A DNA stretch of 64,000 nt from Pseudomonadota bacterium (GTDB lineage: Bacteria; Campylobacterota; Campylobacteria; Campylobacterales; Sulfurimonadaceae), in assembly GCA_043797085.1 (NCBI GenBank), contig JAZDQA010000012.1, forward strand, positions 126,883-190,882, in the 5' to 3' direction. Positions within the stretch are counted from its first letter, which is position 1; every line of letters begins with the position of its first letter. The notes beneath the pieces were generated by a model. The model made no database searches, had not been told where the DNA came from, and was given only the letters and a program-made list of their open reading frames with translations. Position numbers and translations under genes: made by a program. Positions 10,397 to 63,153 of this stretch are shown in pieces.

Positions 10397-10474
10397 TTGA
10401 ACGCTACGCGGAGTAAAACCCAGCGTAGCTGCGCTTGCCGCTATGGCACTGAAGCTTGTCTCCTCGGAGGCAGA
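10397..10474 (-). repeat. Dispersed hairpin element, subfamily 1, copy A
   Basis: Minus strand: TCTGCCTCC-GA-GGAGACAAGCTTCAGTGCCATAGCGGCAAGCGCAG-[hairpin]-CGTTCAA; core shared with 20849, 61884, 63078. Confidence 0.85.
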
Positions 10475-10502
10475 ATTTAACTACTCATTAGGTTTTATCA
10501 AC

Positions 10503-10973
10503 ATGCTATACGATATTATAAAAAGCTCTTCGTTTGCCCGACTCATGGAAAATCATGTTCGTGATATGCTCATCTATCTGTTTGAAAATGAACAAAATTT
10601 CGGGATTTTATGCAAAATCGAATCGGTTAGCTTTGACCCTGTCCTCCCTAAACCTATTGCCGATGAGTTTAGATCCATGACACTCTTTTTTCTTGCAGGA
10701 TACACTTTTGAAAGTGCTCGTATCGACAATGACGTTTTAATTTTTGAAGCAGGGTTTGGGCAGGAAAACATTGGCAGTTTTGTAAGCGTCCCTTTGCTGT
10801 CCATCGTGCAAGTAATCATCGATGATACTCCGGCATTTGTTAATTTGGCACTTCCACATGAGCGAATAATGCCAGCAAACAGTGAAAAAAATGAAGGGGT
10901 TCAAAATTCCATGAGTGCCTTTCTCTCAAATCCTGAAAATCAGAAATTTTTAAAAGAGACACCGAAAAAGTAG
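10503..10973 (+). CDS. Hypothetical protein
   Basis: Open frame; the ORF-track start at 10443 lies inside repeat copy A, so MLYDII at 10503 is preferred. Confidence 0.75.
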   Translation: MLYDIIKSSSFARLMENHVRDMLIYLFENEQNFGILCKIESVSFDPVLPKPIADEFRSMTLFFLAGYTFESARIDNDVLIFEAGFGQENIGSFVSVPLLSIVQVIIDDTPAFVNLALPHERIMPANSEKNEGVQNSMSAFLSNPENQKFLKETPKK

Positions 10974-11873
10974 TTAGAGCTTTAAGCCCAATAAATACGT
11001 TACAACGTTATCAATAAAGGCATCATGCTTGCGCTCTTTGCTGTAAGCGATGTAAAACTTGCGTTTGATTTTAAAGTTTTTGATTCGCGCTTCAAATAAT
11101 TTCCCCTCTTCCACTTCATCTTGAATAACATGGCGAGAAATGACCGACACAACAGGACGTTCAGCATTTTTAGGAGAGCGAAGGATCGTCTCTTTGATCG
11201 CCGTAGAACTTGCTACTACACCGATTACGCTAAAACTGGAGCACTCGACACCGATCTCTTCAAAAACTTCCGCTGTCAGCTTGCGAGTATGCGAGTTTTC
11301 ATCACGGCAAATCCAATCGAATTTATATAAATCCTCTTTACGAAGCTGCTTAGGAATAGGTTGATTGGAAAAAATAACCAATTCATCTTCTTCCCATTCA
11401 CGGTAAATAATACCCTCTTTCATTACAGGCGACTCAATCAGCGCAATATCGATTTTTTTATCCATCAACTGATCGATAATATCTTCCGAAAGGGCAACAC
11501 GAATATGAACTTCATTGTTGATTTTATCTTTTAAAGCCGCGAGATACATTGGAAGAACATAGTTTCCAATGGCGTATGAGGCCCCTACAATAAAGGTGAA
11601 TTCTTTATTGATAATTTTCAGTAAATCTTTTTCACTGCTGAGAATAGCTTTTTCAAGTCTAATGGCAATTCGATAAAGATCCTCACCCTCTTTTGTAAGC
11701 TTAATCCCATTTTTTTTCCGCTCAACAATACGTGTATCAAGATAATCTTCAATAAATTTGATCTGTTGCGTTACCGCAGGTTGGGAAATTCCAAGCTTAG
11801 CAGATGCTTTTGAAAAGCTTTTTTCTTTGACCACCGTTAAGAAGGTCAAGAGTTTCGCAAAGTCTTTTAACAT
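10974..11873 (-). CDS. LysR-family transcriptional regulator
   Basis: N-terminal HTH SFSKASAKLGISQPAVTQQIK, 299 aa. Confidence 0.95.
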   Translation of the reverse strand: MLKDFAKLLTFLTVVKEKSFSKASAKLGISQPAVTQQIKFIEDYLDTRIVERKKNGIKLTKEGEDLYRIAIRLEKAILSSEKDLLKIINKEFTFIVGASYAIGNYVLPMYLAALKDKINNEVHIRVALSEDIIDQLMDKKIDIALIESPVMKEGIIYREWEEDELVIFSNQPIPKQLRKEDLYKFDWICRDENSHTRKLTAEVFEEIGVECSSFSVIGVVASSTAIKETILRSPKNAERPVVSVISRHVIQDEVEEGKLFEARIKNFKIKRKFYIAYSKERKHDAFIDNVVTYLLGLKL

Positions 11874-12010
11874 AATAATTCCTATAAGTAAAATATATGA
11901 CAGTATTATAACCTAGAATTATGACCTTTGCAAGCTGTTGCTATTTTTTCACACTTCGAGCGAAATTGAGCTATAATAAAACATCTAATGCAATGAAGGC
12001 TCTCTCGGAT

Positions 12011-14059
12011 ATGGATAAAATTTTTGATAGTCTCAATGATGCTCAACGATCGGCGGTTGAGACGATTGATGGTCCTTTACTCATCCTAGCAGGCGCAGGA
12101 AGCGGAAAAACTAAAACCATTACCTCGCGTCTCGCTTACCTACTCGATTCCGTAGGTGTTCCCTCCAGCCAAACCCTCACCCTGACGTTCACTAACAAGG
12201 CGGCCAAAGAGATGCGTGAGCGCGCAATGGGGCTTATCTCTCAAAAAAGCTATCCGCCATTACTGTGTACCTTTCATAAATTCGGCTTATTGTTTTTAAA
12301 ATTTCATATTCATCTACTGGGACGAAGCAATAGCTTTGTCGTAATTGACAGTGATGACAAAAAAAAGATTCTCAAAAAAATCAATGCAGATCTACCCACC
12401 GCACTTGTTGCCAGTGAAATTTCTCGTTATAAAAACTCATTAATTGCTCCGCAAGAGGCTTATGCACAAGCTGAACTTACCAACTACAAACATATCGCTA
12501 AAATTTACGAAGAGTACCAAGCCTATTTACTCGATAACAATTTAGTAGACTTTGATGATCTGCTATGTCTTACCTATAAACTGCTTGATGAAAACGATGA
12601 ACTTTGCACTCAAACCAGTGAAAAATACCGCTACATTATGATCGATGAGTACCAAGATACCAATGAACTGCAACTGCGGTTACTGCAAAAACTCTGCTCT
12701 ACCCACAATAATCTCTGTGTAGTTGGGGATGATGATCAAAGTATTTATGGATGGCGCGGGGCACACGTGCGTAATATTTTGGAGTTTGACCAAGACTTTC
12801 CCAATACCACCATCGTAAAACTTGAACATAACTACCGTTCCACGCAAGCCATTCTTACTGTTGCCAATTCACTCATCGAGCATAATCGATCCCGATTAGG
12901 TAAAACGCTTATTGCTACTAAAACCGGTGGGGAAGATGTCAAAATCCTTAGTGCACATGACGAGAGCGAAGAATCTCAAAAAGTAGCCAAAGAGATTCGC
13001 CGTCTCTTAGACAGTGGCGTACGCGCTAATGAAATTGCGGTACTGTACCGGATCAATGCCCTTAGTCGTTCTCTCGAAGAGGGTCTAAACCGTGCCGGAG
13101 TTGCCTACAAGCTCGTAGGTGGATTACGCTTTTATGACCGTGCCGAAGTCAAAGACTTGATCAGTTATTTGCGTGTTATCACCAATGTTCATGATAACTT
13201 TTCCCTCAAACGTATTATCAACAAGCCTAAACGAGGGTTAGGAAAAGCAACCATCGAAAAACTCGAACTCTCCGCAATGGCTGCGAGTAAATCGATGTTT
13301 GAATTTATTGACACCTTATCTGATGGTGAACTCGAAGGGTTAGCACGCAAAAAAAGTGTCGGTGAATTACGTAACTTTATCCGAGAAATCGTCGAATTAC
13401 GAGATATTGCCGAAGAAGCTATTTACCAATTTATCGATCAGCTTGAAAATCGTTTCAAAATCAAAGAAACACTCAAAGGGCTCCCCGATGAAGCCGATAA
13501 AATTTCCAATGTGGATGAATTTTATGGACTGTTTCGCGATTATGTCAAACAAAACCCTGAGACCTCACTCGCCGAATTTCTAAATGACATTACCCTCCAA
13601 AGCGACCAAGATCAAGTCGAAGGGGAGAGCATCTATATTATGAGTATTCACGCTTCAAAAGGATTGGAATTTGAGCACCTTTTTGTCATTGGAATGGAAG
13701 AGGGGTTTTTACCTCTAATCGGAGATGGAAGTGATTTGGAAGAGGAACGTCGCCTTGGATATGTTGCTTTTACCCGCGCTAAGAGCAATCTCACTTTATC
13801 AAGTGTCAACAGCCGTTTCTACAAAGGTCGTCGCACAGAACTGCAAAAAAGCCGTTTTATCAATGAGGCAGGTTTATGCGAGGGCTCACTTATTTTAGAA
13901 AAAAATACTGCTTACAAAAAAGGAGATTTAGTGCGCCATAAAATATTCGGTGCCGGACGAGTCGAGGGCGTGAGCAAATCAGGGCGCGAGTTTAAACTTC
14001 TCATCAACTTCGGCGGCAACAAACGTGATATTCTCGCCTCCTTCGTAGAGAAACTTTAA
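12011..14059 (+). CDS. uvrD: ATP-dependent DNA helicase, UvrD/PcrA/Rep family
   Basis: AGAGSGKT, DEYQD, VGDDDQSIY, HASKGLEF, EERRLGYVAFTRA; TATAAT at 11972-11977. Confidence 0.95.
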   Translation: MDKIFDSLNDAQRSAVETIDGPLLILAGAGSGKTKTITSRLAYLLDSVGVPSSQTLTLTFTNKAAKEMRERAMGLISQKSYPPLLCTFHKFGLLFLKFHIHLLGRSNSFVVIDSDDKKKILKKINADLPTALVASEISRYKNSLIAPQEAYAQAELTNYKHIAKIYEEYQAYLLDNNLVDFDDLLCLTYKLLDENDELCTQTSEKYRYIMIDEYQDTNELQLRLLQKLCSTHNNLCVVGDDDQSIYGWRGAHVRNILEFDQDFPNTTIVKLEHNYRSTQAILTVANSLIEHNRSRLGKTLIATKTGGEDVKILSAHDESEESQKVAKEIRRLLDSGVRANEIAVLYRINALSRSLEEGLNRAGVAYKLVGGLRFYDRAEVKDLISYLRVITNVHDNFSLKRIINKPKRGLGKATIEKLELSAMAASKSMFEFIDTLSDGELEGLARKKSVGELRNFIREIVELRDIAEEAIYQFIDQLENRFKIKETLKGLPDEADKISNVDEFYGLFRDYVKQNPETSLAEFLNDITLQSDQDQVEGESIYIMSIHASKGLEFEHLFVIGMEEGFLPLIGDGSDLEEERRLGYVAFTRAKSNLTLSSVNSRFYKGRRTELQKSRFINEAGLCEGSLILEKNTAYKKGDLVRHKIFGAGRVEGVSKSGREFKLLINFGGNKRDILASFVEKL

Positions 14060-14881
14060 TTGAATCGTCTTTTTGTAGCCTATAAGCCCGCAGGGATAAG
14101 TTCTAACCATTTTTTAGGGCGGCTAAAACGTCGGTATGGAGTCAAAAAAGCAGGATTTTCAGGAACACTCGACCCTTTTGCAAAAGGGGTTTTAATTGTC
14201 GCTTTTGGCAATCACGGTCGCCTCTTTCGTTTTTTAAACAAAACTCCCAAGCGCTATCGTGCAACGCTGTGGCTGGGTGCATATTCCCCAACATTGGATA
14301 TTGAAGGGGTAGAAGAGATTGAAACGCTCGAAGCTTTTCCTGTTGAAAAAATAGAAACTGTTATTGCCTCACTTCAAGGAGAACTCAGCTACCTTCCACC
14401 CAAATTCAGTGCAAAACGGCTTAATGGAAGACGTGCCTACGAATTTGCAAGAGCCGGTATTGATGTGGAGCTAAAAACCATTACATCCACAATTCATGAA
14501 ATAAAAATGCTCCACTATTGTCACCCCTTTGTCACCTTCGAAGCAAGCGTTTCGGAGGGGAGCTATATTCGTTCATTGGGTGAAATGGTTGCAGATGCTC
14601 TTGGATGCTCAGGCTCACTTAGCGCATTAGAACGTTTGAGTGAAGGACAGTTTGTATTCGATAATGAAAATGCAATCGACATAAAAACAGGACTTGGAAT
14701 CCCTAAAAATCGGTATAATGGCACAAAAGAAACCATTCTTTTAGGTCAACCATTAGAGCGATCACTTTTTGAGATAAACGAAAATGGAACCTACTGGATT
14801 GATAACGATGAAACAATCTCCATTGTTGAGATTGCCGATGATAAGGTTCACTATATTCTCAATAAGGTTGAGGCATGCTAA
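14060..14881 (+). CDS. truB: tRNA pseudouridine(55) synthase
   Basis: GFSGTLDPFAKG, PPKFSAK, SEGSYIRSL. Confidence 0.95.
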   Translation: MNRLFVAYKPAGISSNHFLGRLKRRYGVKKAGFSGTLDPFAKGVLIVAFGNHGRLFRFLNKTPKRYRATLWLGAYSPTLDIEGVEEIETLEAFPVEKIETVIASLQGELSYLPPKFSAKRLNGRRAYEFARAGIDVELKTITSTIHEIKMLHYCHPFVTFEASVSEGSYIRSLGEMVADALGCSGSLSALERLSEGQFVFDNENAIDIKTGLGIPKNRYNGTKETILLGQPLERSLFEINENGTYWIDNDETISIVEIADDKVHYILNKVEAC

Positions 14882-15105
14882 TACTTTCACGAAAACTTGA
14901 TGAATCCATCCTTATTGGGGATTCAATAATGATCAAAGTAGTCGCCATTGATAAAGGAGTCGTTAAACTCGGTATTGATGCTCCTGCTCATATTCGAGTA
15001 CTGCGAAGTGAACTCATCCGTGCAGTGGAAGATTCGAACAAAGCAGCTTCCATTGAGCATGATGAATCACTTTTACATCAACTTGCCAAAAAATTCAAAC
15101 TATGA
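14875..15105 (+). CDS. csrA: Carbon storage regulator
   Basis: MLILSRK...VKLGIDAP...LRSEL. Confidence 0.95.
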   Translation: MLILSRKLDESILIGDSIMIKVVAIDKGVVKLGIDAPAHIRVLRSELIRAVEDSNKAASIEHDESLLHQLAKKFKL

Positions 15106-15869
15106 CACGCTACAAAGCCTTTGCAAAGGTCAATATTTTTTTAAAAATCACAGGGATACGAGGAAACTACCACACGATCACCTCACGATTTATGCGAGTA
15201 TCCTCTCTTTTTGACACCCTGTGGTTTGAACCGAAATTAACCCCTGAATTTGAAATCAGAGGAAATTTTGACTGTGAGATACATTCTAACACCATTTACA
15301 AAGCTTATAAACACCTCCTTACCTATACACGCTCAAATGCGCTATCAACCCTAATGGAAGAGAATGCCGTATGCGTTGATAAGCAAATTCCTTCGTATGC
15401 AGGGTTAGGCGGTGGAAGTTCTGATGCCGCCACCTATCTTCATCTGTGCAATGACACTCTCCATCTGGGATTAAGCATCGAAGAACTCTCCGAAATCGGC
15501 TCCGCCGTAGGTGCCGATGTCCCCTTTTTCGTTTATGGCTACGAGAGTGCCAACGTCAGCGGAATCGGAGAGATTGTTCAGCCGTATAACGAGAAACTCA
15601 TTGATTTTGAAACGATTACCCCGCCCATCCAAATCAGTACCCCTGCGGTTTATCGCTACTATCGTGACCATCTCTATGCTCCCATCAGTACCGAGGAAGC
15701 AATCCGTCTTGAATCAACACCTTCTTTGGATATTCTAGCCTCAATGAATGCCAAAGAGGCAAATGACCTTTATGGTGCAGCACTTGGATGTTATCCTGAA
15801 CTTACCGAAAAAGAGGGATGGTTTTTCAGCGGCAGCGGCAGCAGTTTTTTTAGACTAAAGGATAGATAA
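15102..15869 (+). CDS. ispE: 4-diphosphocytidyl-2-C-methyl-D-erythritol kinase
   Basis: [32 protein letters not shown]. Confidence 0.95.
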
Positions 15870-15871
15870 TC

Positions 15872-16324
15872 ATGGGCGAAAACATAGCCACCAATAAAAA
15901 AGCCTTTTTTGACTACCACATCGAAGAGAAATTCGAAGCAGGTCTTGTCCTTCACGGCTCTGAAGTCAAAGCACTGCGGGCAGGACGGGTCAACCTCAAA
16001 GAGGGGTTTATTAAAATCGTTCGAGGGGAAGCCTTTTTATTTAATGTCCATATCGGTGTACTCGCGACAACGCACCATTTTTATGCGCATGAAGAACGGG
16101 GAAGCCGAAAACTCCTTTTGCACAAAAAACAAATTGACAAGATGTTCAAAGCAGTCGAAAAAGAAGGCTTCACACTTGTTCCACTCAGCATCTATCTCAA
16201 TGATCGAAATATTTTTAAAATGCAAGTTGCTATTGCAAAAGGAAAAAAACTCTACGACAAACGAGAGGACTTAAAAGAAAAAAGTCTTAAGCGGGATATG
16301 GAACGAGCACTCAAAGGAGAATAG
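15872..16324 (+). CDS. smpB: SsrA-binding protein
   Basis: [36 protein letters not shown]. Confidence 0.97.
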
Positions 16325-16327
16325 CAC

Positions 16328-17161
16328 ATGGTCACAATGAACGGCGTCACCCTGCATGATCTGCACTTCAAAGATCTTCAAAATCCAATCCATCCTTCTG
16401 TTTACGAAAGCTTTAGTGATTACCAAATATTGATCCTTAGATTACCCGAATTATGGGAGGGCAAATCGAGTATCCTCTCTCTGCGATTACCGGAATTTTG
16501 GGAAGCCAAAGGAAAGTTTCTCTCTTATGGTTTTGTCATTAGTCCAAAGGGAGTCTGCTATTACGATAAAAAAACCAATTCTTTCATTAATTACTCCGAA
16601 GGGATGAAAGATTTGTATCATTTTTTAGATACAAAGATTGATGCCCTAATGGAGGATATGGACATGGCTCAAGAGAAAATTGCTTTTCTTGAAGAGGGGT
16701 TGTATAAAAAACACAATAGTGCTCTTATGGATCGATGGCATACCCTTAAAAAAGAGCTTTCACGTTCTGAGCGAGTTATTGTAAAAGCAGTGGACACCTT
16801 AGGACAATTTATCATAAAATCAAAACTCACAGAAGAATCGTTAGAGAATGAATTCAATGATCTTCATGAGCATCTCGAGCGAACGCTTCGTTCCACAATT
16901 TCTGCTAATAACCAGCTCGATGATTTATACCGCTACTATAACCTTCGATCCAACGATCGGATGAATCGCAGTATCTACGTCCTCACGATTGTTTCGGTCA
17001 TTTTTTTACCTCTTAATCTTGCGGTTGGTTTTTTCGGAATGAATACAGGTGGATTGCCATTTCAGGACATAAGCTTTGGAACCGTATATGCGCTTGAAAG
17101 TATGATTATTTTTGCTATATTGCTCATTGGTGCAGTGATTTGGAAAATAAAACAAGAATAA
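16328..17161 (+). CDS. CorA-family divalent cation transporter
   Basis: C-terminal TM pair with FLPL...GFFGMN signature. Confidence 0.9.
   Translation: MVTMNGVTLHDLHFKDLQNPIHPSVYESFSDYQILILRLPELWEGKSSILSLRLPEFWEAKGKFLSYGFVISPKGVCYYDKKTNSFINYSEGMKDLYHFLDTKIDALMEDMDMAQEKIAFLEEGLYKKHNSALMDRWHTLKKELSRSERVIVKAVDTLGQFIIKSKLTEESLENEFNDLHEHLERTLRSTISANNQLDDLYRYYNLRSNDRMNRSIYVLTIVSVIFLPLNLAVGFFGMNTGGLPFQDISFGTVYALESMIIFAILLIGAVIWKIKQE
16436..16525 (+). repeat. In-frame degenerate 45-bp tandem duplication inside the CorA-family gene
   Basis: LRLPELWEGKSSILS / LRLPEFWEAKGKFLS. Confidence 0.85.
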
Positions 17162-17173
17162 GATAAATGTTTT

Positions 17174-17194
17174 CCCGCATCCGTAAGATGCGGG
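17174..17194. terminator. Hairpin between convergent corA and rplS, probable bidirectional terminator
   Basis: CCCGCATC-CGTAA-GATGCGGG perfect 8-bp stem. Confidence 0.65.
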
Positions 17195-17223
17195 TAATTT
17201 TGGGGAAGATATTCGTTTTAGTT

Positions 17224-19058: not shown

Positions 19059-19060
19059 AC

Positions 19061-19291: not shown

Positions 19292-19420
19292 TTTAGATCC
19301 TTTTAAATAATATTTTGCGCACAGTTACTTTGAAGAGTGTTTTGCCCATAAAAGCAAAAAAAAACCACAAAATGACTAGAACGCTAAGTCAGAGATTTCG
19401 AAAAATCTCCTGCTTAACGT

Positions 19421-20848: not shown

Positions 20849-20923
20849 TTGAACGCCGTTAGAGCAAAGCTCCAACGTCTACGCTAGCCGCTATGGCACT
20901 AAAGCTTGCCTTTTCAAGGCAGA
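20849..20923 (-). repeat. Dispersed hairpin element, subfamily 1, copy B
   Basis: Minus strand: TCTGCCTT-GAA-AAGGCAAGCTTTAGTGCCATAGCGGCTAGCGTAG-ACGTTGGAGC-TTT-GCTCTAACGG-CGTTCAA. Confidence 0.9.
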
Positions 20924-45583: not shown

Positions 45584-45593
45584 TTATTTTCCT

Positions 45594-45658
45594 TTAAACG
45601 ACAACAAAACGCGTCTTGTTGTCTACGCTAGCGCTAAGCTTCCTTCAGCAGGAGGCTC
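45594..45658 (-). repeat. Dispersed hairpin element, subfamily 2, copy E
   Basis: Minus strand: GAGCCTCCTGCTGAAGGAAGCTTAGCGCTAGCGTAG-ACAACAAGAC-GC-GTTTTGTTGT-CGTTTAA. Confidence 0.8.
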
Positions 45659-45692
45659 GTGCGCACATATGTGCTTGTTAAATTTTATTTTC

Positions 45693-46703
45693 CTATTTCT
45701 TTCTCATCCAAAGGATAATATCTTCGTTTATTTTAGCGTGCAGTACCTCAAAACTCTCTGTAACAGCCCCCATACTCACACTTCCACCACCAATTATGGG
45801 TGCAATGTAACATGAATACCAGTCACATACATCCTCTGTCGCTTCTAACATACTAGCCCCGCCCTCAATCATCACCAAAGAATACTCTTTTATCTTTTCC
45901 AATGATGACTCGATAAATACGCGACGATTTGGGATGGAAAAAAGAGCAATAGTCATATCAAAATCCAGATCGTGTGAATAAATCAATACATCAGGAGCTT
46001 TTCCATCCACCAAACGGGCATCGAGTGTAGGACGATCTTCTCGCACCGTACGTCCTCCGATAACAATCAAATCACATACATTGCGCAGGGCATGAACGTG
46101 TTTTCGAGATGTTTGAGAGCTGATGATTCCATTGTTTACAGTTCCATCAAGCCGTTGTGCCCATTTGAAAAAGACAAAAGGATTATTTTGCCATTGTAAA
46201 AAGGGTTCAAGCAATTTAGTTCCCTCTTCTTCCATAATCCCAAAAGTACACGTTACCCCTGCATCTTCTAAGATACTCATACCATTTGCAGCAATGGGAT
46301 TGGAGTCTTTGCACGAAATAAAAAGAGTTTTTATCCCCAAATCACGAATCAGTAACGCACATGAAGGTGTTTTACCGCTGTGAGCGCAGGGTTCTAGCGT
46401 TACCGCCATGGAGATGTTTTGAAAAAGATTGTTATGATGTTCTCGTAGATAAGTGTGGATGTGTGCGGAATCGTCGCACAAAGCAATTGACGTATCACCG
46501 CTTAAAGCGACATACGCATCACGAAGCGCGTACACCTCGGCATGAGGACCGCCTGCTTTTTTATGAGCACCAATAGAGAGAATTTCTCCATGAGCACCAA
46601 TACACACAGCACCAACAGCAGGATTAGGAAAAGTTAAGAGTTGATAGTCCCACGCCGCATTGATGGCGAGGTTCATAGGAGTTTGAGAGGTTTTCATCAC
46701 CAC
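45693..46703 (-). CDS. ribD: Riboflavin biosynthesis protein RibD
   Basis: PNPAVG, HAE, TLEPCAHSGKTPSC, IEGG; start uncertain. Confidence 0.95.
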   Translation of the reverse strand: MVMKTSQTPMNLAINAAWDYQLLTFPNPAVGAVCIGAHGEILSIGAHKKAGGPHAEVYALRDAYVALSGDTSIALCDDSAHIHTYLREHHNNLFQNISMAVTLEPCAHSGKTPSCALLIRDLGIKTLFISCKDSNPIAANGMSILEDAGVTCTFGIMEEEGTKLLEPFLQWQNNPFVFFKWAQRLDGTVNNGIISSQTSRKHVHALRNVCDLIVIGGRTVREDRPTLDARLVDGKAPDVLIYSHDLDFDMTIALFSIPNRRVFIESSLEKIKEYSLVMIEGGASMLEATEDVCDWYSCYIAPIIGGGSVSMGAVTESFEVLHAKINEDIILWMRKK

Positions 46704-51152: not shown

Positions 51153-51188
51153 ATTCTTCCTTGTGATTTTGATGTTATACACCAAAAC

Positions 51189-51283
51189 GAACCCGTCCGT
51201 TTTAGTGGCAGGGACGCCCAGCCGGTACTTCGTACATCGGCATGGGTTCCAAAGCTAAAAAAGTCAAGAAGTTGGCTTTTTTT
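51189..51283 (+). ncRNA. Candidate structured small RNA (three-way junction plus terminator-like hairpin)
   Basis: GC-rich nested stems in the tsaB-like/thrB gap; family not recognised; strand inferred from a G·U pair and U-tail. Confidence 0.4.
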
Positions 51284-51306
51284 ACGCTTTTCACCCGTAC
51301 AACCCC

Positions 51307-51759
51307 CTAAAGCGCATCTATTCTATAATGCGGGGCGTTATCGGTATTAAAATTTTCAACATTTATGACATTTGGAAGCTCAAAGCCTTTCAAAACTGGC
51401 TGCTCCAGTGGCGTCGTCGAAATCATATTACTATTTTTAACGAAATAGAGCTTTCCTACTGCTTTGATGGGGTGATTTTCATTGAAAAAGAACCCATCCG
51501 CTGCCAAGAGTGGAATTTTTTTGACGATACTGAGGGTTTTTAAAAAGAGATAGGTCACTTTTATCCCCATAAAACTTCCCGGACCATTCGCATACATCAA
51601 ATAACGAAACGAATACCGACTCAATAAATCCTCAAAAATCTCACTCAACGCATCGGATCCCATCTTGTCACTTTTGATGGCTTCGATTAGTTTTCCTGAT
51701 TCATCGTAAATCCCAACTAAAACAGGACTTCCCAATGCGATGACAACGGCATCATGCAT
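51307..51759 (-). CDS. TsaB-like (YeaZ/glycoprotease-like) protein, short Campylobacterota form
   Basis: [12 protein letters not shown] motif; between lpxC and thrB. Confidence 0.8.
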
Positions 51760-54058: not shown

Positions 54059-54086
54059 ACTAACACCTCCGTAATATTTTATTATT

Positions 54087-54153
54087 TTAAACGCTTATTG
54101 GAACTTGTCCCAACAAACTACGCTAACGCTATGTTTACTTCAGCAGTAGGCTC
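54087..54153 (-). repeat. Dispersed hairpin element, subfamily 2, copy F (overlaps the 3' end of the DHH gene)
   Basis: Minus strand: GAGCCTACTGCTGAAGTAAACATAGCGTTAGCGTAG-TTTGTTGGGAC-AA-GTTCCAATAAG-CGTTTAA; core matches copy E. Confidence 0.75.
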
Positions 54154-55077
54154 AAGTGCTATTTTTATTGAATCCATTAAATTGTTAATTACTGACTCAC
54201 GGGAACCCTCTACTATTCGAGCACCTGCACGGATTTTATGTCCGCCTCCGCCATAAGAGTGTAACAGTTCGGCAGCATTAATAGTTCCATCACTGCGCAA
54301 AGAAACTTTGACACCGCCACTCTTTAGTTCTACCACTAAAAGTGCGATTTGAACCGTTTTAAGACTCAATGCTTCATCGACAACTGCTTTACAATCCCGC
54401 AAGATGGCACCTGAACTTGCAAAAAGTGCTTGATCCACTTCAAACACCGCCACGCGACCATCGTGAAGTATTCTCATCCGCTTCAACATCTCCCCTTTTA
54501 GTCTAAAGGAGGACAAAGAATGACTGTGAAACAGTGCATCCACACACAAAGCATGGTTAGCACCCGCTTGTATTAACGAATGTGCCATGTTAAATACTGC
54601 ACCAGTACAGCTTGAATCACTAAAACAGTGGGTATCATCAAGCAACCCTGCATAAAGCGCATTTGCCATTTTACCATTGATTTTGACTGTATTGGTAACG
54701 AACCACTCATAAAGTACTTGTGTCGTACTCAAGGCTTTGGTATCAACACAATTATATGTTCCATAATTTTCATTACTAATATGGTGATCAAAATTTATCA
54801 ACTCACCTTCATACTCAATACCAAGCCTGCCATAACTGCCACAGTCAAAGCTAATCGCCAAATCAGCATCAGAAGGAAATTTCGACGTTATTTCACCAAA
54901 CCACGGAAGAAAAGAGAGATTTTTATCCACAGATGGGGTAACACAAAAAAGTGTCACTTTCGTTTTGGATCGTAAGAGATAGGAATAAAATGCACAAGCA
55001 GACCCAAGCGAATCTGCATCGGGATGCTCATGGGCTACGAGGACGATGTGATGAGCAGAATCGATAAGCGCTTGCAA
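54118..55077 (-). CDS. DHH/DHHA1 phosphoesterase (NrnA-like)
   Basis: HEHPDAD, FDHH, SLRS, GGGGH; TATAAT at 55108-55113. Confidence 0.92.
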   Translation of the reverse strand: MQALIDSAHHIVLVAHEHPDADSLGSACAFYSYLLRSKTKVTLFCVTPSVDKNLSFLPWFGEITSKFPSDADLAISFDCGSYGRLGIEYEGELINFDHHISNENYGTYNCVDTKALSTTQVLYEWFVTNTVKINGKMANALYAGLLDDTHCFSDSSCTGAVFNMAHSLIQAGANHALCVDALFHSHSLSSFRLKGEMLKRMRILHDGRVAVFEVDQALFASSGAILRDCKAVVDEALSLKTVQIALLVVELKSGGVKVSLRSDGTINAAELLHSYGGGGHKIRAGARIVEGSRESVINNLMDSIKIALEPTAEVNIALA

Positions 55078-55118
55078 TGGAATCCTCTTCGCAAAAAAAT
55101 ATTTGCGATTATACCTAA

Positions 55119-56036: not shown

Positions 56037-56055
56037 CTTGACTCCTTTTGTTTTT

Positions 56056-56490: not shown

Positions 56491-57389
56491 TCCCACTCCA
56501 ACATACGATAAGATGCTTCAACATTCCCTCGGTGAAGGGTTTCATACATTTTCAGCGATTTGTATTGAGGCATTGTCACTTTTTTGACCGTCTCCTCGAT
56601 ACCTATCCCATCAGCAATCGCCGCACGAACTTGGGATCGCATATCTGTGAGATAATTATAGGTCATATCTGCCGCTTTTTTATCGGTACGATACCCATGC
56701 CCGCCAATAATCGTCGTTGCATTCAATTTTTTTAGCTCATCGAGTGCATCAATCCAACCGTTAATATCTCCACCTGCCAGAGAGGGAACGCGGTCATTAA
56801 ACACTAAATCTGCCGCAAAAAGGGTTTTAGATTTGGGTAAAAATATCACCATGTCTTTATCGCTGTGGGCTTTTTTCTTCATAAGACGTAATTGCAGTTC
56901 TTGATCTCCGATTTTCAGAGTTTTATCCGAGTTTATCATTTCACTAGGACGGGTCGGAACGGTCAGCGCGTACGCTTCTGGGGAGATATGGGTTTGGATT
57001 CGGGAAGGAGAATCAATGCTGGCATTATGAACAAAGTCATCCGAACCCAAAACCTTAACTCCTATTTGAGCGAAAAAGCCATTACCCAGCCAATGATCAT
57101 CATGGACATGGGTGTTTATCACAAGCTCTACGGGTAAAGCTTTTATTTTTTGCATCACTTTGTATGCCGAGTGGGCATACGCGTACGAAGAACCGCTGTC
57201 GATAACGACATAGCTCTTTTTGGTATCGATATAGCACGTGTTGACCATGTTGCCGTTATTCGTCGTATTCATCACAGCAGGTTCACCGAAAAAACAGGTT
57301 ACCTCAGGGGTAACGCGCTTGGGTGTGAGTGCGAAATCGTACGCACTCAATGTTGTGAGTGAGAGTAGTAATGGCAACATCCAACGCAT
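56487..57389 (-). CDS. Exported metallo-beta-lactamase-fold hydrolase (SoxH-like)
   Basis: VIDSG, NTHVHDDH, DLVF, GGHG; signal peptide; sox context. Confidence 0.85.
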   Translation of the reverse strand: MRWMLPLLLSLTTLSAYDFALTPKRVTPEVTCFFGEPAVMNTTNNGNMVNTCYIDTKKSYVVIDSGSSYAYAHSAYKVMQKIKALPVELVINTHVHDDHWLGNGFFAQIGVKVLGSDDFVHNASIDSPSRIQTHISPEAYALTVPTRPSEMINSDKTLKIGDQELQLRLMKKKAHSDKDMVIFLPKSKTLFAADLVFNDRVPSLAGGDINGWIDALDELKKLNATTIIGGHGYRTDKKAADMTYNYLTDMRSQVRAAIADGIGIEETVKKVTMPQYKSLKMYETLHRGNVEASYRMLEWE

Positions 57390-57399
57390 GTTTTATCCT

Positions 57400-58905
57400 T
57401 TAGAAGAGATAGTTAATTTCGAAACGGTATTCGTTGTAGGAGTTATTATCTACAGTCGATTGTACTGTTGCACTGGTATATGCGGGATCTGCATTAACGG
57501 TTGCAAAACGGAGTTTAAATTCAGTGTTAGGAACTGCTTTAAATGTTTTCCATGCATCGACATGGAAAATATTACGGTCAGTGAAACCTGAAGTAAATGC
57601 TTTAGCATCATCAAAGTTCATATTTTCATAATCAGCCGCTACTTTGAATCCTGATACCATACCCGCTTTTCCAAAATCATAAACCGCTTTTACAGCCCAG
57701 TTTTTGGTATTAGCGATCCAGTCAACTTGTGCCATTGAACGAGTATATCCACCCGTAGGGAATCCGCGCCATGGTGCGATGATATCCGCATCATCGGAAA
57801 CTTTTGAGTAACCGGTTGAAAGCTCTAGCGGTCCGCTAGCTGCTACTAAACGTGCCATTATGATGCTACCGTCTACATTTCTTACATCTTTATAGCCAGT
57901 GATTCCAGATGTTGTTGCATTTTGTAGCTTATTACTAAGTGCTGCACCCCCAATATATCCGGCACCATCATCCATTTGAGATAAATAACGTACACCCGGT
58001 GTCAATGTCCATGCATCGCTCAATTTGATTTTATAGTTAGCTTCGGCAATCGCAGTATTTACAAAACCGTCAACTCCTACATACTCTGCATTCAATTTCA
58101 AATTCGGTATAGAGGTATTTTGAGCTGTAATCAATACCATTTCAGGATCAATATCACCGTTGCCTCTAGTGCGGATATTAGCCGTCGAAAGCCCTTTATG
58201 AACACCAGAATCGTCATTGCCTTCAACTTTTGAGACTGAATCGAATGCGATAATACTGTGAAACGATTGGTGGTCACGAAGCTTTTGAGACATAATATAA
58301 CCGGCACGTAAAGTCGTATTAGCTATGTCTTTGTTTTCAACCACGGCTGCTTCAAAAGTATTCGGAATCATTTTAGTATCATTCGATGCCAACATGATAC
58401 TGTCGATCATTTGACGCCCCACTTTTACATCCGTTTTACCGTTTTTATATTCCAAGTAGGCTTCGGCAAAGTTACCCATGCCACCTTCAGTACCATCACG
58501 GCGGGTGTGATACGTGTCTTTACCCGCTTTACCAAAGTTGGTTACACTACCTGGAATTGTATTATCGTCTAAAACTTGAGTTGTTCCATAAAAGCCAATC
58601 GTTGCACCAAAACCATGATAAAAACCGGTTTTTGCTACTAAGCTGCCACCCAAGCCCCACATGTCATTATCTTGAACAGCAGCATTTTCGTTATTCCAAT
58701 CCCACAAAAAAGCATTCGAACGTAGGCGTCCGTACACTTCACCCTCACTAAACATCTCAGCGAATGAATTTACATCGCCCGGTGCTTTTGTGTACTCTAC
58801 TTGATAATTTCCCTTAATAATACGATCTTCACTTTTAAGCGCATGCGCCGAGGTTGCGAACAAACATGCTGCTGCTGCTGCGATGCTAAGATTTACTAAT
58901 TTCAT
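57400..58905 (-). CDS. OprD-family outer-membrane porin
   Basis: Signal peptide, EAYLEY..KVGRQ, MIPNTFEA, beta-signal EYRFEINYLF. Confidence 0.85.
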   Translation of the reverse strand: MKLVNLSIAAAAACLFATSAHALKSEDRIIKGNYQVEYTKAPGDVNSFAEMFSEGEVYGRLRSNAFLWDWNNENAAVQDNDMWGLGGSLVAKTGFYHGFGATIGFYGTTQVLDDNTIPGSVTNFGKAGKDTYHTRRDGTEGGMGNFAEAYLEYKNGKTDVKVGRQMIDSIMLASNDTKMIPNTFEAAVVENKDIANTTLRAGYIMSQKLRDHQSFHSIIAFDSVSKVEGNDDSGVHKGLSTANIRTRGNGDIDPEMVLITAQNTSIPNLKLNAEYVGVDGFVNTAIAEANYKIKLSDAWTLTPGVRYLSQMDDGAGYIGGAALSNKLQNATTSGITGYKDVRNVDGSIIMARLVAASGPLELSTGYSKVSDDADIIAPWRGFPTGGYTRSMAQVDWIANTKNWAVKAVYDFGKAGMVSGFKVAADYENMNFDDAKAFTSGFTDRNIFHVDAWKTFKAVPNTEFKLRFATVNADPAYTSATVQSTVDNNSYNEYRFEINYLF

Positions 58906-58936
58906 TCTAACTCCTTAAGATAAATTAAAAACTGTT

Positions 58937-60697
58937 TTAGCAGCTTTTTGAGCCCTTGCGAGGGCAACCGCAATCGTAATCTAAGATATTGACATTGCTG
59001 TTACCGCTGATGTCTACATTTTTTTGTTTACGTATGTAGTTGGCAGCGATATCATAAACCGGACGGGTCAATTGATCATTCAGGTTGGTTCCTGCATTTT
59101 GCAAGTTTCCGCCCCATGATGACACTTTATAGACCTTACGGTCATCCAAAGGTTTCCCTTTTACCATGATATTCGTAATACGTTTCCCGCTTGGAGCACC
59201 GATTTTGATATCATAGGTCACACCACCAAGACGGCTCATATCGCCACCTTGCTGGTAGAGAGGATTTGCATTAAAGACATTATCAGCAATGTCTTCAAGA
59301 ACATTTCGTATCTGTAATCCGCCCATTTCAAACGTATAAACATTCGGATAGGTAATCGCCGTCATCCCATAGACATCATCCATAGTGATGGCTTCTCCGC
59401 CAAGAACCGTGGTTCCCCAACGGTAACCTGGCGTAAACGAAATATCCGAATCCATCGCATCCATAATCGAGTCGTTGATCAACTCATCAAACGGGGAATG
59501 GAAGGTATCGCGTTTGTACAAGATGTTTTTTGTCACACCGAGTATTTCACTGAACTCTTTTTCATGCGGTGCATAAAGAGAATTGACAAGCTCTACCCCT
59601 TCTGGATCAGCAGGGATAAGATTGGCAGCTACTGGGATGAGTTTGTACTCATATCCTTTTACTTTATGGTTCTTGATATCAATATCCAAGCGCCCGACGT
59701 ATTTGCCATGGCTTCCTGCGATAATGATGACCGTACCGTTGATGACGGTCGGTTGCGGTGACGGATCATGCGTGTGACCGCTTAGGATAAAATCGATCCC
59801 CTTGACCTGACGCGCAACTTCTTGGTCAACGCTGAAACCGTCGTGCGATAAAAGAACCACACAATCGACTTTTTCTTCTTTACGCAATTTATCCACGTAC
59901 GTTTGAAGCGTATCAAGACGCAATCCAAAACTCCACCCTTGGGTAAACTCTTTTGGATTTGCCGTGGAGGTAAACGGAAACGATTGACCGATAATCCCGA
60001 TCTTCGCACCGCCTCGTTCCATAATCGTATACGGTTCAAAAATCAATTCCTCATAATCATCGGCAAACGAATCATCGCCGACAATATTTTGAGAAATAAA
60101 TTTCCCTTTGAGCATTTCGATCAGCTCTTTTACCCGTTGCTTGCCGTAGGTAAATTCCCAGTGACCGACCATAACGTCAACGCCCAAATAGTTTTGAGCT
60201 TGGACGATCGCTTCACCCTTGGTTTTTAGTGCAACACCGGTACCCTGCCATGTGTCTCCTGAATCCAGAAGCAATACATTGTCCGCACCGCGCTCTTTTT
60301 TGACGTGGTTGATGAGGGTTTTCATGTGAGCGATTCCCCCCATTTTTCCGAACTTGTGTGCCAATGCATCAAAGTTCATAAACGTGTCGAAATACGCATC
60401 AAGAGTCTTGCCCTTCATTCCGTAGTGTTTCAAAAACGACTCACCGCACAAAAACCCTGGAGTTCCTGTAAGGTTTGGAGCCGAAATCAAGGTCGAAGGC
60501 TCACGCCAGTAGAGAGGCTTGATGTGAGCGTGCATGTCACAGATATGTAACAGCGTCACATTACCTCTGGCATTAAATCCGTAAATGTCTTGCAAGCCTA
60601 CTTGATCGAGGCGTTTTGGTGCAGCAGTTGCAAGGGTTGGTAATCCAATCCCTAAAGCAGCCGCAATGTGAAAAAAGTCTCTTCGTGATACATCCAT
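58937..60697 (-). CDS. soxB: Thiosulfohydrolase SoxB
   Basis: Tat signal SRRDFF; DMHAH..PLYWREP, GDTWQG, GHWEFT, GHTHD, QQGGDM. Confidence 0.96.
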   Translation of the reverse strand: MDVSRRDFFHIAAALGIGLPTLATAAPKRLDQVGLQDIYGFNARGNVTLLHICDMHAHIKPLYWREPSTLISAPNLTGTPGFLCGESFLKHYGMKGKTLDAYFDTFMNFDALAHKFGKMGGIAHMKTLINHVKKERGADNVLLLDSGDTWQGTGVALKTKGEAIVQAQNYLGVDVMVGHWEFTYGKQRVKELIEMLKGKFISQNIVGDDSFADDYEELIFEPYTIMERGGAKIGIIGQSFPFTSTANPKEFTQGWSFGLRLDTLQTYVDKLRKEEKVDCVVLLSHDGFSVDQEVARQVKGIDFILSGHTHDPSPQPTVINGTVIIIAGSHGKYVGRLDIDIKNHKVKGYEYKLIPVAANLIPADPEGVELVNSLYAPHEKEFSEILGVTKNILYKRDTFHSPFDELINDSIMDAMDSDISFTPGYRWGTTVLGGEAITMDDVYGMTAITYPNVYTFEMGGLQIRNVLEDIADNVFNANPLYQQGGDMSRLGGVTYDIKIGAPSGKRITNIMVKGKPLDDRKVYKVSSWGGNLQNAGTNLNDQLTRPVYDIAANYIRKQKNVDISGNSNVNILDYDCGCPRKGSKSC

Positions 60698-60707
60698 CTG
60701 ATTTTCC

Positions 60708-61514
60708 TTAGCGCTTCAATCCAGGGATTTGAATCGCGTTTCCTTTGGTTTTATTGGTTACATAGACTTCAAGTGCAACCATCTCTTTAGAGCCCAACGG
60801 CAGTTCAGCCAATAGAGCATTTTTCATACATTGCTGCATACGCTTGTCCAATGTCACCATCGCACTTTGCGTCATACGATATGCCGGCCATGTTCCCGCA
60901 GCTGCAGTCTCTTTCGCTCCCAAATCAGGAAGAGGCTGCATACGAAGACGCATACCTACTACATCTTCGCTGTGACAACTGTTGCACGAAAGTCCGCGTC
61001 CGCCGCGACGCTCTTCGAATACTGATTGACCCAATGCGTACATCTCTTGCATTTGCTTGTTTGCTTTGACGTCAATGTTCGTTTTAAGATCATTTGCGAG
61101 TGATTTCACATACGCTGTCATATTAATCATCTCTTTGTCTTTAAGCTTAAAAACCTTTTTATCACGATCCGCCAATGCCATTTGCAAGGATTGAGATAAC
61201 GTCACGACTTTGCGCATCGTCTTTGGAAACGTAAAATCATATTTAGGTGTGGCTGTCAGCATACGAGGAAACCCGGCAATAGTTTCTGGCAGATCTTTTA
61301 CGCTAACCCCAAGTACCTTTGCATAGGCTTCTTGACCGATTAGAGAGTTGAACATCTCTTCACCCTCTGCCACATCCATAGCAGCCGGATTATTTTCAAC
61401 CATTTCAGCGTACATTGCCTTATCAGCATCACTCATACTCAGTTTTTCATCCGCACTTAACATGCCACAAAGAGCCACGGAAAGTAATGCAGCACAAATA
61501 GAAAGATTACGCAT
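60708..61514 (-). CDS. soxA: SoxA cytochrome (mono-haem type)
   Basis: Single CNSCH, WPAYR, RMQQC active-site cysteine. Confidence 0.93.
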   Translation of the reverse strand: MRNLSICAALLSVALCGMLSADEKLSMSDADKAMYAEMVENNPAAMDVAEGEEMFNSLIGQEAYAKVLGVSVKDLPETIAGFPRMLTATPKYDFTFPKTMRKVVTLSQSLQMALADRDKKVFKLKDKEMINMTAYVKSLANDLKTNIDVKANKQMQEMYALGQSVFEERRGGRGLSCNSCHSEDVVGMRLRMQPLPDLGAKETAAAGTWPAYRMTQSAMVTLDKRMQQCMKNALLAELPLGSKEMVALEVYVTNKTKGNAIQIPGLKR

Positions 61515-61517
61515 GAC

Positions 61518-61853
61518 TTATCCTTTTGGAGTAATGGCTACAGTACTCTCTACACTTTGACCTTTGTTGTCTTTTGCTAGAACTTTTAACGCTCCGGCAG
61601 AAGGGACTTTAAAACTGATGCTTAAAACAGGATTTACCGAAAGGGATTCCCACGTTACCATCTTAGTCACCAATTTATCGTTGAATGAAAAACTAACTTC
61701 ATTGATGTAATGTGCCGGAATAATTGCTCCGGTATCTTTGTCTTTACGCATTCCCGATTCCATAGGGTGCATTGCCATAAAGTCGATTTTGACGACATCG
61801 CCTGCTTTGTAATCTTTTGGTTTGATCTTGATCAATGTTTTCATCTCTGCCAT
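61518..61853 (-). CDS. soxZ: Sulfur carrier complex subunit SoxZ
   Basis: HPMESGMRKD, IPAHYI, SVNP, DNKG; start MAEMK after GAAGG. Confidence 0.95.
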   Translation of the reverse strand: MAEMKTLIKIKPKDYKAGDVVKIDFMAMHPMESGMRKDKDTGAIIPAHYINEVSFSFNDKLVTKMVTWESLSVNPVLSISFKVPSAGALKVLAKDNKGQSVESTVAITPKG

Positions 61854-61883
61854 AATAAATCCTTCTTTTATTTTCATTAATAA

Positions 61884-61977
61884 TCTGCCTCGACAGAGGC
61901 AAGCTTTAGTGCCTTAGCGGCTAGCGTAGCCGGCGGGGCTCACGTGCCCTTTAGGGTATAGCTCCGTTGACGTTCAA
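61884..61977 (+). repeat. Dispersed hairpin element, subfamily 1, copy C
   Basis: TCTGCCTC-GACA-GAGGCAAGCTTTAGTGCCTTAGCGGCTAGCGTAG-[long hairpin]-CGTTCAA. Confidence 0.9.
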
Positions 61978-61985
61978 AATAGAAC

Positions 61986-62459
61986 TTAACCACATCCACC
62001 GATAGTTACTTTAACGTTTTGCTTGCCGCTTAGGAATGTTCCGTCGCTCATCTCAGCAATCGCCAAAACATCTTGTGTTCCGCCCAGTTTGATACGCGTT
62101 CCAAAAGAAGCTTCTCCGTTAGCAGGAGTCAAATAGACGTTTGCGCATCGGACATTATTATTTTTTGTCGCCAATACATGGATCGCTTTAACATAATCTT
62201 TATCCGTCATTGGGCTTGCAACGGTTACTTTGATCGGAACAACTGCACCATTTTCCGCAATTTCAGGAGCGGATAAAGACACTTTTGATGATGGAGTTAC
62301 CGCTTTTCCGCCGGTAATAGCCGAAATTGCCGTTTCAACACTCATCTCATTAGGACCTGTAACCTTTTTGGCTTCATCCGCTGCACTTGCGATACTAGGA
62401 AGCAGTGTTGCACATGCTGCTACTGCTCCAAAACTTTTTAAAAATGATCTACGTTCCAT
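61986..62459 (-). CDS. soxY: Sulfur carrier protein SoxY
   Basis: Tat signal ERRSFLK; APEIAENGAVVP; C-terminal VKVTIGGCG. Confidence 0.97.
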   Translation of the reverse strand: MERRSFLKSFGAVAACATLLPSIASAADEAKKVTGPNEMSVETAISAITGGKAVTPSSKVSLSAPEIAENGAVVPIKVTVASPMTDKDYVKAIHVLATKNNNVRCANVYLTPANGEASFGTRIKLGGTQDVLAIAEMSDGTFLSGKQNVKVTIGGCG

Positions 62460-62474
62460 CTTTTCTCCTTGAAT

Positions 62475-62996
62475 TTATTTTTTAGACATGACATACGATG
62501 CCAAATCACATACTTCACGCTCATTAAAGAGTCCATTTGCCAAATTGACCGTCATGTGTGTTTGTGGATTATCCATACGGGGATCAGCAATCTTTTGGTA
62601 CACAAACTGACCGTTTCGTACCCCGCTGTCAACAAAAAGAGATTTATAGTTACTCAAATCCGGTCCGATATTACCGTACCCTTTTGCCCCTTCGATATTG
62701 TGACAAGCGACACAATTACCGTATTGTTTCTCACTTTTCCCATCAGCCATTTTACGGCTAAGCCCTTCAGGCGGATTCTCTTTTGCATCTTTTCCATTAA
62801 GATTATGGAAAATGTATTTTCCCCGTGCAATCGCACCAAGATCTTCCGTAATACACCCTTGCGGCATTGAATACAATTTAGGTGCAGGAAGTGCATCTTT
62901 AAGTAAAATTGCAGTCGCATCTGGCGCTTCAATCACCTGCGATAAATCAGCAGCACCTAAAAAGGTCGCGATTCCAAGTACTATCACTTTTCGCAT
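62475..62996 (-). CDS. soxX: SoxX cytochrome c
   Basis: GNCVACH, GNIGPDL; first gene of the sox operon. Confidence 0.93.
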   Translation of the reverse strand: MRKVIVLGIATFLGAADLSQVIEAPDATAILLKDALPAPKLYSMPQGCITEDLGAIARGKYIFHNLNGKDAKENPPEGLSRKMADGKSEKQYGNCVACHNIEGAKGYGNIGPDLSNYKSLFVDSGVRNGQFVYQKIADPRMDNPQTHMTVNLANGLFNEREVCDLASYVMSKK

Positions 62997-63028
62997 TGGC
63001 TCTCCTAGTTATATTTATTTCAAGGAGT

Positions 63029-63061
63029 ATTGTAAAGGAGAAGTGTAAAATTAACGTAAAA
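63029..63061 (-). promoter_or_regulatory. Putative sox operon promoter (-10 TACAAT) with upstream direct repeats
   Basis: TACAAT at 63034-63029; GTAAAA at 63045 and 63056 (11-bp period). Confidence 0.45.
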
Positions 63062-63077
63062 AAATGAGCAAATTAAT

Positions 63078-63153
63078 TCTGCCTCTACAGAGGCAAGCTT
63101 TAGCAGCCCAAGCGGCTAGCGAAGCGAAAGGGATTCTATTCCTTTCGCATAAA
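63078..63153 (+). repeat. Dispersed hairpin element, subfamily 1, copy D
   Basis: TCTGCCTCT-AC-AGAGGCAAGCTTTAGCAGCCCAAGCGGCTAGCGAAG-CGAAAGGGA-TTCTAT-TCCTTTCG-CATAAA. Confidence 0.85.

Follow-up and report, generated by a model that had tools for sequence, protein, structure and literature searches.

Repetitive extragenic palindromic (REP) sequences, the described repeats that come closest to the family analysed here, are marked by a GTAG tetranucleotide at the foot of a hairpin (PMC6006769). They favour spacers between tandem or convergent genes and avoid divergent ones, and their REPtrons can be lost (PMC3733652), while irregularities of the stem matter to recognition by TnpA-REP (PMC8266576). 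A second described system pairs CGTC-type REPs, also named NTS or SRM, with GIY-YIG nucleases of the Ssn type (PMC3733652, PMC11893778). Sulfurovum NBC37-1 is the sole Campylobacterota genome in PMC3733652. Here we describe a family of dispersed hairpin-chain repeats that an initial annotation had noticed as six copies in a 64,000-nt stretch (the window; C12:126883-190882) of the genome of a sulfur-oxidising Sulfurimonadaceae bacterium (the source genome, G000; 2.40 Mb in 14 contigs, 95.9% complete). The element is, with high probability, both mobile and non-autonomous, a conclusion far better supported than the identity of any enzyme that moves it. To the question of how REP-like repeats arise, multiply and diversify, the family contributes alleles from close species in which a site is naturally filled, empty, inverted or swapped, outer-stem pairs whose covariation is seen between copies but not in place, and a passenger of 18 nt (M4) in several unrelated repeats.

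Structure and copy number

In both subfamilies the core runs from a small NNAGY-loop hairpin through A(G/A)CGTAG to a terminal hairpin that CGT(T/A) follows. The stem of the NNAGY hairpin is GCC/GGC in 96 of 98 subfamily 1 copies and AAC/GTT in 24 of 28 subfamily 2 copies. Besides this core, subfamily 1 carries a 5' hairpin and AAGCTTYAG, and subfamily 2 a hairpin with a GCYGA loop, often accompanied by one more. The terminal stem has about 10 bp, a conserved inner G.T pair and a loop of 2-4 nt, and GTAG (as GT[AG]G) stands at its 5' foot in 50 of 62 copies. A GNA triloop, which is a type of DNA mini-hairpin, was considered for the GCGTAGC anchor; it is present in a single predicted fold (copy C). 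No terminal inverted repeats were apparent by eye at the ends of 102 subfamily 1 and 28 subfamily 2 copies.

The initial annotation had described the terminal hairpin as different in sequence and length in every copy, always paired, and possibly recognised by linker plus shape. In the six window copies it measures 25, 23, 22, 24, 41 and 23 nt, the 41 nt of copy C being accounted for by a 23-nt hairpin with a precise 18-nt insert, and 88 of 98 distinct subfamily 1 hairpins are 22-24 nt long once inserts are removed, so that the variation in length does not hold. The pairing does, since the outer six positions are paired in 86-96 of the 98 copies (permutation means 41-59). The sequence of these outer six pairs is indeed free, whereas the inner stem is conserved: GGRY-loop-RYTC with the G.T pair fits 65 of 98 copies, with the G.T pair built into the search pattern. 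With inner stem and stem length both conserved, recognition by linker and shape only was an overstatement. In an independent 27-row alignment, G.T was the commonest pair at its column (18 of 27), both-sided changes occurred at nine of 11 terminal pairs and none of 500 shuffles reached the covariation score; the rows were picked for 23-nt hairpins and related rows inflate covariation. Moreover, strong covariation alone is no proof of a functional RNA.

Perfect matches to anchor, hairpin and CGT[TA] numbered 25 in the source genome and zero in each of three order-5 Markov nulls. Profiles built from 42 seed copies gave 62 nhmmer matches, a few of them partial, corresponding to about 60 intergenic copies, while the reversed genome gave 0 and 2 weak matches (E 0.098 and 0.21). 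An exact 19-nt pattern was found in 23 of 24 congeners and in 1 of 16 other families (control pattern, 0); among 201 genomes of the class it occurred in 10, with 0 of 83 and 0 of 64 in the two largest families sampled. Beyond the congeners, the family is present in further Campylobacterota of free-living habit: among the 80 loci listed of at least 123 in a genome collection, all but one were labelled Campylobacterota (Sulfuricurvum, Sulfurimonas, Sulfurospirillum, Sulfurovaceae and Helicobacteraceae). The Sulfuricurvum records held near-identical copies with flanks matching those of the source genome, which makes Sulfuricurvum the likely genus. Copies C and E were unmatched in a plasmid collection. 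In viral contigs there was one subfamily 1 match, and 72 subfamily 2 pattern matches of which four passed the hairpin filter and two look real; two phage contigs carry subfamily 2 copies within structural operons.

One relative, G077, gave 67 pattern matches, many of them in head-to-tail arrays with a spacing of 71 or 103 nt, and the copies fetched from it are near-identical at many unlinked sites, which suggests a recent burst of the element. Head-to-tail arrays had spacings of 56-58, 71 or 103 nt and microhomology at the joints, and the clusters in G024, as those in G077, are head-to-tail. Both genomes (G077, L217-L233; G024, L031 and L032) also show extra flanking hairpin modules beside the arrays of near-identical copies.

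According to crude gene calls, the 62 copies comprise 24 sense and 24 antisense copies in tandem spacers, 10 in convergent and 4 in divergent spacers. Tandem or convergent placement accounts for 58 of 62 copies, and divergent spacers are depleted (4 of 62 copies against 248 of 797 spacers, P 2.5e-6). Given the even split between strands in tandem spacers, the element is not a riboswitch or terminator, as the initial annotation had argued. A replichore bias was not supported (35 of 61, P 0.31). The same operon spacers, soxY-soxZ and two that by sequence appear nifS-nifU-like and amtB-glnK-like, are filled across several genera and in both orientations. Recurrently filled spacers were observed at L091, L146, L149, L155, L172, L195, L218 and L224, at L102, L124, L133 and L143, and at L110 and L148.

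Polymorphism at orthologous sites

For the soxY-soxZ spacer, the comparison covered the 29 loci that scored best and contained both genes, a sample weighted towards carriers (the query contained the element): six hold the element antisense, one sense, two a CGTC-type repeat, and 20 are empty. A tree of soxY and soxZ requires at least six changes at this spacer, near-identical copies occur in distant congeners, and the X2 and X3 runs have contigs with the core inverted. Because this single site holds the element in either orientation or an unrelated CGTC-type repeat, we read the element as mobile and not as a fixed regulatory RNA.

When 749 kb from G002 and 460 kb from G045 were compared, there were 30 distinct polymorphic sites (33 printed, three repeated), with filled and empty orthologues among close relatives. 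At 12 of the 26 clear sites, judged by eye with four unclear ones left out, a relative carries another repeat in the same slot, which may be of the CGTC type, of the CGTTC type, or the other subfamily inverted. The excess of such swaps over the repeat density of the source genome (P 7e-6, with p 0.11) shrinks when two relatives per site and their denser repeats are considered (P 0.004 with p 0.21; P 0.06 with p 0.30), and long permissive spacers are a confounder. One clean gain was seen in G002 relative to both G045 and G000, with 92 nt and an 8-nt duplication; a 10-nt duplication flanks site E, and at C1:113943 and C10:4168 of the source genome the first 20-28 nt of the adjoining gene are duplicated on both sides of the copy. 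No duplication of constant size emerged, the lengths being 8, 10 and 20 or more nt at these four sites and most sites having none.

Over 17 comparisons of orthologous copies, the stem showed 8 changes in 340 sites, all one-sided, of which four break a pair and none is double, while 4 of 51 loop and 6 of 323 linker positions changed and the flanks were 94.5% identical; the pairs are not independent, and the parser retained near-intact copies and excluded decayed ones. With stem changes one-sided in orthologues, paired variation seems to arise between copies and not in place. Taken together, filled, empty and inverted orthologous sites, many genomic copies and covariation bear out the view of the initial annotation that this is a non-autonomous mobile structured family, although that reading was incomplete, having overlooked the nested 18-nt insert and the spacer swapping with other repeat families. 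These two are the surprising parts, beyond what an ordinary repeat offers.

Copies in the window

The six copies lie at the positions and on the strands first reported, in sense orientation to the neighbouring genes for B, E and F and antisense for A, C and D, with GTAG anchors in four copies, GCAG in A and GAAG in D; E and F reach further 5' than claimed. Each of the six sites lacks its copy in some relative. Copy A (10397..10474, minus strand; subfamily 1, with the GCAG anchor) is antisense between two plus-strand genes, and its site is without a copy in G002 and G045, as it is in X8 and X12 contigs. Copy B (20849..20923, minus strand; subfamily 1) is sense between an RluA-family gene and ffh and is common to G002 and G045, its region being replaced in an X4 contig. 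Copy E (45594..45684, minus strand) belongs to subfamily 2 with an extra 5' hairpin and an A/T-rich leader, and lies in sense in the ribD/ubiE spacer, which is empty in G002 and G045. The 10-nt direct repeat flanking E has its 3' copy at 45584..45593 (minus strand; AGGAAAATAA, ribosome-binding-site-like) and its 5' copy at 45685..45694 (minus strand), and the empty G002 allele has a single similar copy. Copy F (54087..54160, minus strand; subfamily 2) is sense between an NrnA-like gene and pgp6 and common to G045 and G002. X3 and X7 contigs pass over it, and one contig of RNA run X1 covers it with zero differences.

Copy C (61884..61977, plus strand; subfamily 1) is the antisense occupant of the soxY-soxZ spacer and holds in the loop of its terminal hairpin the 18-nt mini-hairpin insert M4 (61941..61958, plus strand; CACGTGCCCTTTAGGGTA). 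Copy D (63078..63153, plus strand; subfamily 1, with the GAAG anchor) is antisense upstream of soxX and ends in CATAAA, so that the CGTTCAA end described for subfamily 1 does not apply to it. At its site the element was seen in G000, G002 and G045 only, in a comparison with two mis-mapped loci; the orthologues in G002 and G045 are decayed, each with an M4-type insert that D itself is without. The surrounding sulfur-oxidation genes soxX, Y, Z, A and B occupy 58937-62996 on the minus strand, and a further repeat copy stands just beyond soxB in G002 and G045 and is missing there in G000. Another dispersed composite repeat lies at 51181-51310; it recurs elsewhere in G045 and G002, where a short hairpin of the GTAG type takes turns with it.

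The nested M4 insert

Copy C differs from its G045 orthologue by M4, which is absent from the latter. A loose M4 pattern gave 35 matches in the source genome and 6 in the reversed control; by eye, 11 lie in the hairpin-chain family, 11 in CGTC/CGTTC-type repeats and 13 elsewhere, the last probably largely chance. Among subfamily 2 copies, 10 of 28 carry M4 at one common position. The exact 18-mer was found at 48 metagenome loci in 46 distinct contexts, which are not 46 events, because a host bearing M4 can amplify as a unit. Judged by eye, the hosts are mostly loops of CGTC-type repeats (CTT before the insert in 30 of 46 and GA after it in 37 of 46), besides four CCCTCC/GGAGGG hairpins and a few others, and once restored only seven hosts fit the SRM pattern in its strict published form. 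Junctions are without duplication in 39 of 46 contexts, and at least five predicted pairs span the junction in 38 of 46, compared with 186 of 500 junctions chosen at random. Within 1.2 kb of the metagenome matches there was neither a Y1 nor a GIY-YIG gene, and viral contigs gave no M4 match.

These observations raise the possibility, which we consider doubtful as a whole, that M4 (18-20 nt) is an independent minimal mobile element that enters unrelated hairpin repeats (hairpin-chain, CGTC/SRM, CGTTC and CCCTCC) precisely, by shape and not by sequence, and that these repeats form a layered parasite community competing for slots through a shared single-strand cut-and-repair activity, by a kind of enzyme new to repeats. 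If true, a shape-targeted insert of 18 nt would to our knowledge rank with the smallest mobile units on record and would suggest a new activity on single-stranded DNA. As separate observations, one CGTC-type repeat with two different M4-type inserts was seen at L332 and L336, and at L367 (G003:C17) a DUF559 gene is preceded by CCCTCC/GGAGGG hairpins, a repeat type that also hosts M4.

Search for a cognate enzyme

A Y1/HUH, TnpB or reverse transcriptase (RT) gene flanked by copies, as envisaged in the initial annotation, was not found among the loci examined, in a search that did not extend to the IS1595/DDE, HNH and four-helix-bundle families. The source genome has no Y1, DUF559, IS110, TnpB, IS91 or GxxExxY match. 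GIY-YIG loci were flanked in 0 of 71, 0 of 13 and 0 of 20 cases (the sets partly overlap), two having one copy 0.75-1.1 kb away. There was no profile match at 13 TnpB-domain loci (1.5 kb on each side of the C-terminal domain) and no element match at the IS200-type TnpA loci L001 and L002, which led us to discard a derivative of IS200/IS605 (PATE). Six IS110 loci of the genus have neither M4 nor the element, and 2 IS91, 9 DUF559, 15 GxxExxY and 30 tyrosine-recombinase loci are unflanked (the recombinase locus L392 has one copy on one side). Three RT loci are unflanked too, the sole RT of the source genome sits in a prophage, and G077, G024 and G045 gave no RT match. Clustering of 260 neighbouring open reading frames (ORFs) from 124 loci returned ordinary host genes as the recurring neighbours, and the genes flanked by an inverted pair at L134 are ordinary ones.

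Other repeat-enzyme pairs turned up in the same taxa, so such pairs are detectable by this method: 95-aa GIY-YIG proteins among CGTC repeats, GIY-YIG proteins of 92-95 aa among CGTTC repeats, and Y1 proteins with their own inverted repeats. At L237-L242, L244, L246 and L268, a single-domain GIY-YIG gene of 92-95 aa has CGTTC-tagged hairpin dimers on both sides; judged by its sequence, which is unlike the CGTC-associated type, this is a second predicted nuclease-repeat pair, and it was not encountered in the accessible part of PMC11893778. GIY-YIG genes that are Ssn-like by layout stand among CGTC-type repeats in the genus and family (L278, L281, L282, L295, L300 and L303; further loci L599, L602, L604, L605, L608-L610 and L612-L614), yet the source genome, with about 42 CGTC-type repeat loci, has no Ssn-like GIY-YIG gene. 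Y1 proteins of 177 aa are flanked by inverted repeats of another family (L016-L020, L025-L028 and L030), and at C11:159743 of the source genome one such Y1-associated repeat abuts a partial subfamily 2 copy. The prophage region L406 (G000:C11:90819-94412) contains a 355-aa RT, an ORF of 111 aa upstream of it and a target-like gene, a layout that we take to resemble a diversity-generating retroelement. At L376 (G077:C45:1-2801), a 320-aa integron-integrase-like gene has attC-like hairpins upstream and no copy of the element.

Discussion

The GTAG foot, the imperfect stem and the REP-like placement lead us to favour, tentatively and at somewhat short of even confidence, a non-autonomous GTAG-REP-like element that is moved in trans as single-stranded DNA by an HUH nuclease of the RAYT/TnpA-REP type, with host repair likely finishing the insertion. 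The enzyme would use GTAG and the imperfect inner stem to bind the strand in its folded form and would nick close by, as TnpA-REP does. Copies would land in A/T-rich spacers, where repair may rewrite the spacer or duplicate 8 to more than 20 nt, and the insertions that survive would be those sparing a ribosome-binding site or start codon. The outer stem may vary and still pair through re-copying of one arm (template switching) or through the failure of unpaired variants to move, while resident copies would change base by base. M4 would be a second, smaller passenger, entering folded hairpins of several families without duplication and then riding along.

Several results count against this explanation, among which the missing REPtron, the missing doublets and the untidy junctions are the most direct. 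The source genome has no Y1 gene in spite of its 95.9% completeness, copies of the element flank not one of 63 Y1 loci in relatives (many further Y1 matches lie outside those 63), and both Y1 loci of G077 are unflanked in a genome with 67 pattern matches. A RAYT/Y1 as the trans-acting enzyme of the initial annotation is therefore putative. No inverted doublet exists, as no pair lies less than 400 nt apart among the 62 copies. In most filled/empty pairs the spacer is rewritten and the insertion imprecise, and a general target-site duplication is unsupported: 11 of 102 copies have one of at least 8 nt (null mean 2.2), and six of these 11 stem from shared modules or tandem arrays. In 26 of 27 cases the C that follows the hairpin is a possible partner for the final G of GTAG, and for this reason GTAG may not be a free foot. 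Finally, stem and linker diverge by about 2% between orthologues, against 8% in loops and 5.5% in flanks, which may reflect host selection.

Among the alternatives, the one that survives best, although we regard it as unlikely, is that the element is a target of an Ssn-like GIY-YIG or other small single-strand nuclease, whose cuts in replicating or transforming single-stranded DNA lead to illegitimate repair that spreads copies, as CGTC repeats may spread. The GIY-YIG pairs with CGTC and CGTTC repeats in the genus and family are in its favour, and those repeats swap slots with the element and host M4 as well. Both kinds of repeat have CGT before and C after the hairpin, positions relevant for SsnA (PMC11893778), and rewritten spacers are consistent with cut-and-repair. 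Nevertheless, none of the 62 copies fits the published SRM pattern, no GIY-YIG locus in the three sets is flanked, and SsnA, in the accessible part of the same work, was shown to cut and not to mobilise.

It is less probable still that no dedicated enzyme acts at present and that an element since lost left the copies behind as relics, which spread through slippage and template switching, through gene conversion of hairpins and through recombination that exchanges whole spacers between strains. The enzyme searches without a cognate gene, the head-to-tail arrays with microhomology at their joints and the near-identical soxY-soxZ copies in distant congeners fit such a history, and template switching can restore stems (bioRxiv 2021.04.15.439925). 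Relics would not readily explain the near-identical copies at many unlinked sites of G077, the copies within phage operons, the clean new insertion in G002 or the precise entry of M4 into unrelated hosts.

A host-selected structured RNA in inter-cistronic leaders, acting as an mRNA stabiliser, processing site or protein-binding motif, seems improbable to us. In 49 of 60 copies the RNA of the element strand forms a more stable fold than that of the opposite strand, G.T pairs are tolerated, copy F is present in the same-strain contig of RNA run X1 (where DNA carry-over is possible), the same spacers recur across genera and stem divergence is low. Against this stand the antisense half of the tandem-spacer copies, the soxY-soxZ site that takes either orientation or an unrelated repeat and is empty in 20 of 29 loci, the lack of in-place compensatory change, the decay of the D orthologues and the lack of a match in Rfam; a secondary effect on mRNA is possible. 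Least probable of all is a MITE (a transposable element in miniature, with inverted repeats) belonging to a DDE transposase, or else a retro-copied, SINE-like element, which would draw on the duplications, 8 nt long in G002, 10 nt at site E and at least 20 nt at two gene starts, and is opposed by the rarity and variability of these duplications, by the lack of apparent terminal inverted repeats and by the RT results, the sole RT of the source genome lying in a prophage with its presumed retroelement layout.

Comparison with known systems

Integron attC sites, known from cassette arrays with paired AAC/GTT cores and an orientation set by the cassette genes, resemble the element as single-strand hairpins conserved in shape and variable in sequence. 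They were rejected, since the element is without paired AAC...GTT end cores or cassette arrays and lies in both orientations between housekeeping genes. Insertion sequences such as ISPpu9, of the IS110 family, and IS1397 are reported to target REPs, and in this they resemble M4 as a passenger inside a palindromic repeat; M4 differs in its length of 18-20 nt, in being non-coding and in entering several unrelated hosts. Identity with a REPIN, SRM, MITE or Rfam RNA was also considered, and each failed the tests run. In agreement with the initial annotation, no covariance model of Rfam 15 matched the copies in the window and eight loci (E up to 1), with one chance match elsewhere in the window (E 0.06). 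In the literature we found no description of the element or of M4, although the consensus figures and supplements S4 and S5 of PMC3733652 may bear on novelty.

The CGTC REP/NTS/SRM repeats with their Ssn GIY-YIG nucleases (PMC3733652, PMC11893778) share with the element a variable stem preceded by CGT and followed by C, and occur in the same genome, in the same spacers and with the same M4 insert; the element differs in fitting the SRM pattern in no copy, in having no head-to-head dimers and in having no flanked GIY-YIG gene. REPINs (PMC3116915) are likewise small non-autonomous hairpin DNAs with presence/absence polymorphism, but their unit is an inverted REP doublet, of which there is none among the 62 copies. 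The Sulfurovum REP of PMC4690160, as far as the accessible part of that work goes, has a different sequence. From the GTAG REP/BIME repeats mobilised with RAYT (PMC3733652, PMC6006769, PMC8266576) the element differs as a chain of at least three hairpins whose outer stem covaries freely, present as singletons or head-to-tail arrays with no REPtron found and with the last G of GTAG pairable. Its membership in this group is therefore putative. In its overall behaviour, however, the element is like a GTAG REP, with GTAG at the foot of an imperfect short-loop hairpin, tens of intergenic copies in tandem and convergent spacers, and mosaic composites. Altogether, these likenesses and differences place it as a real and apparently undescribed family of the REP class.

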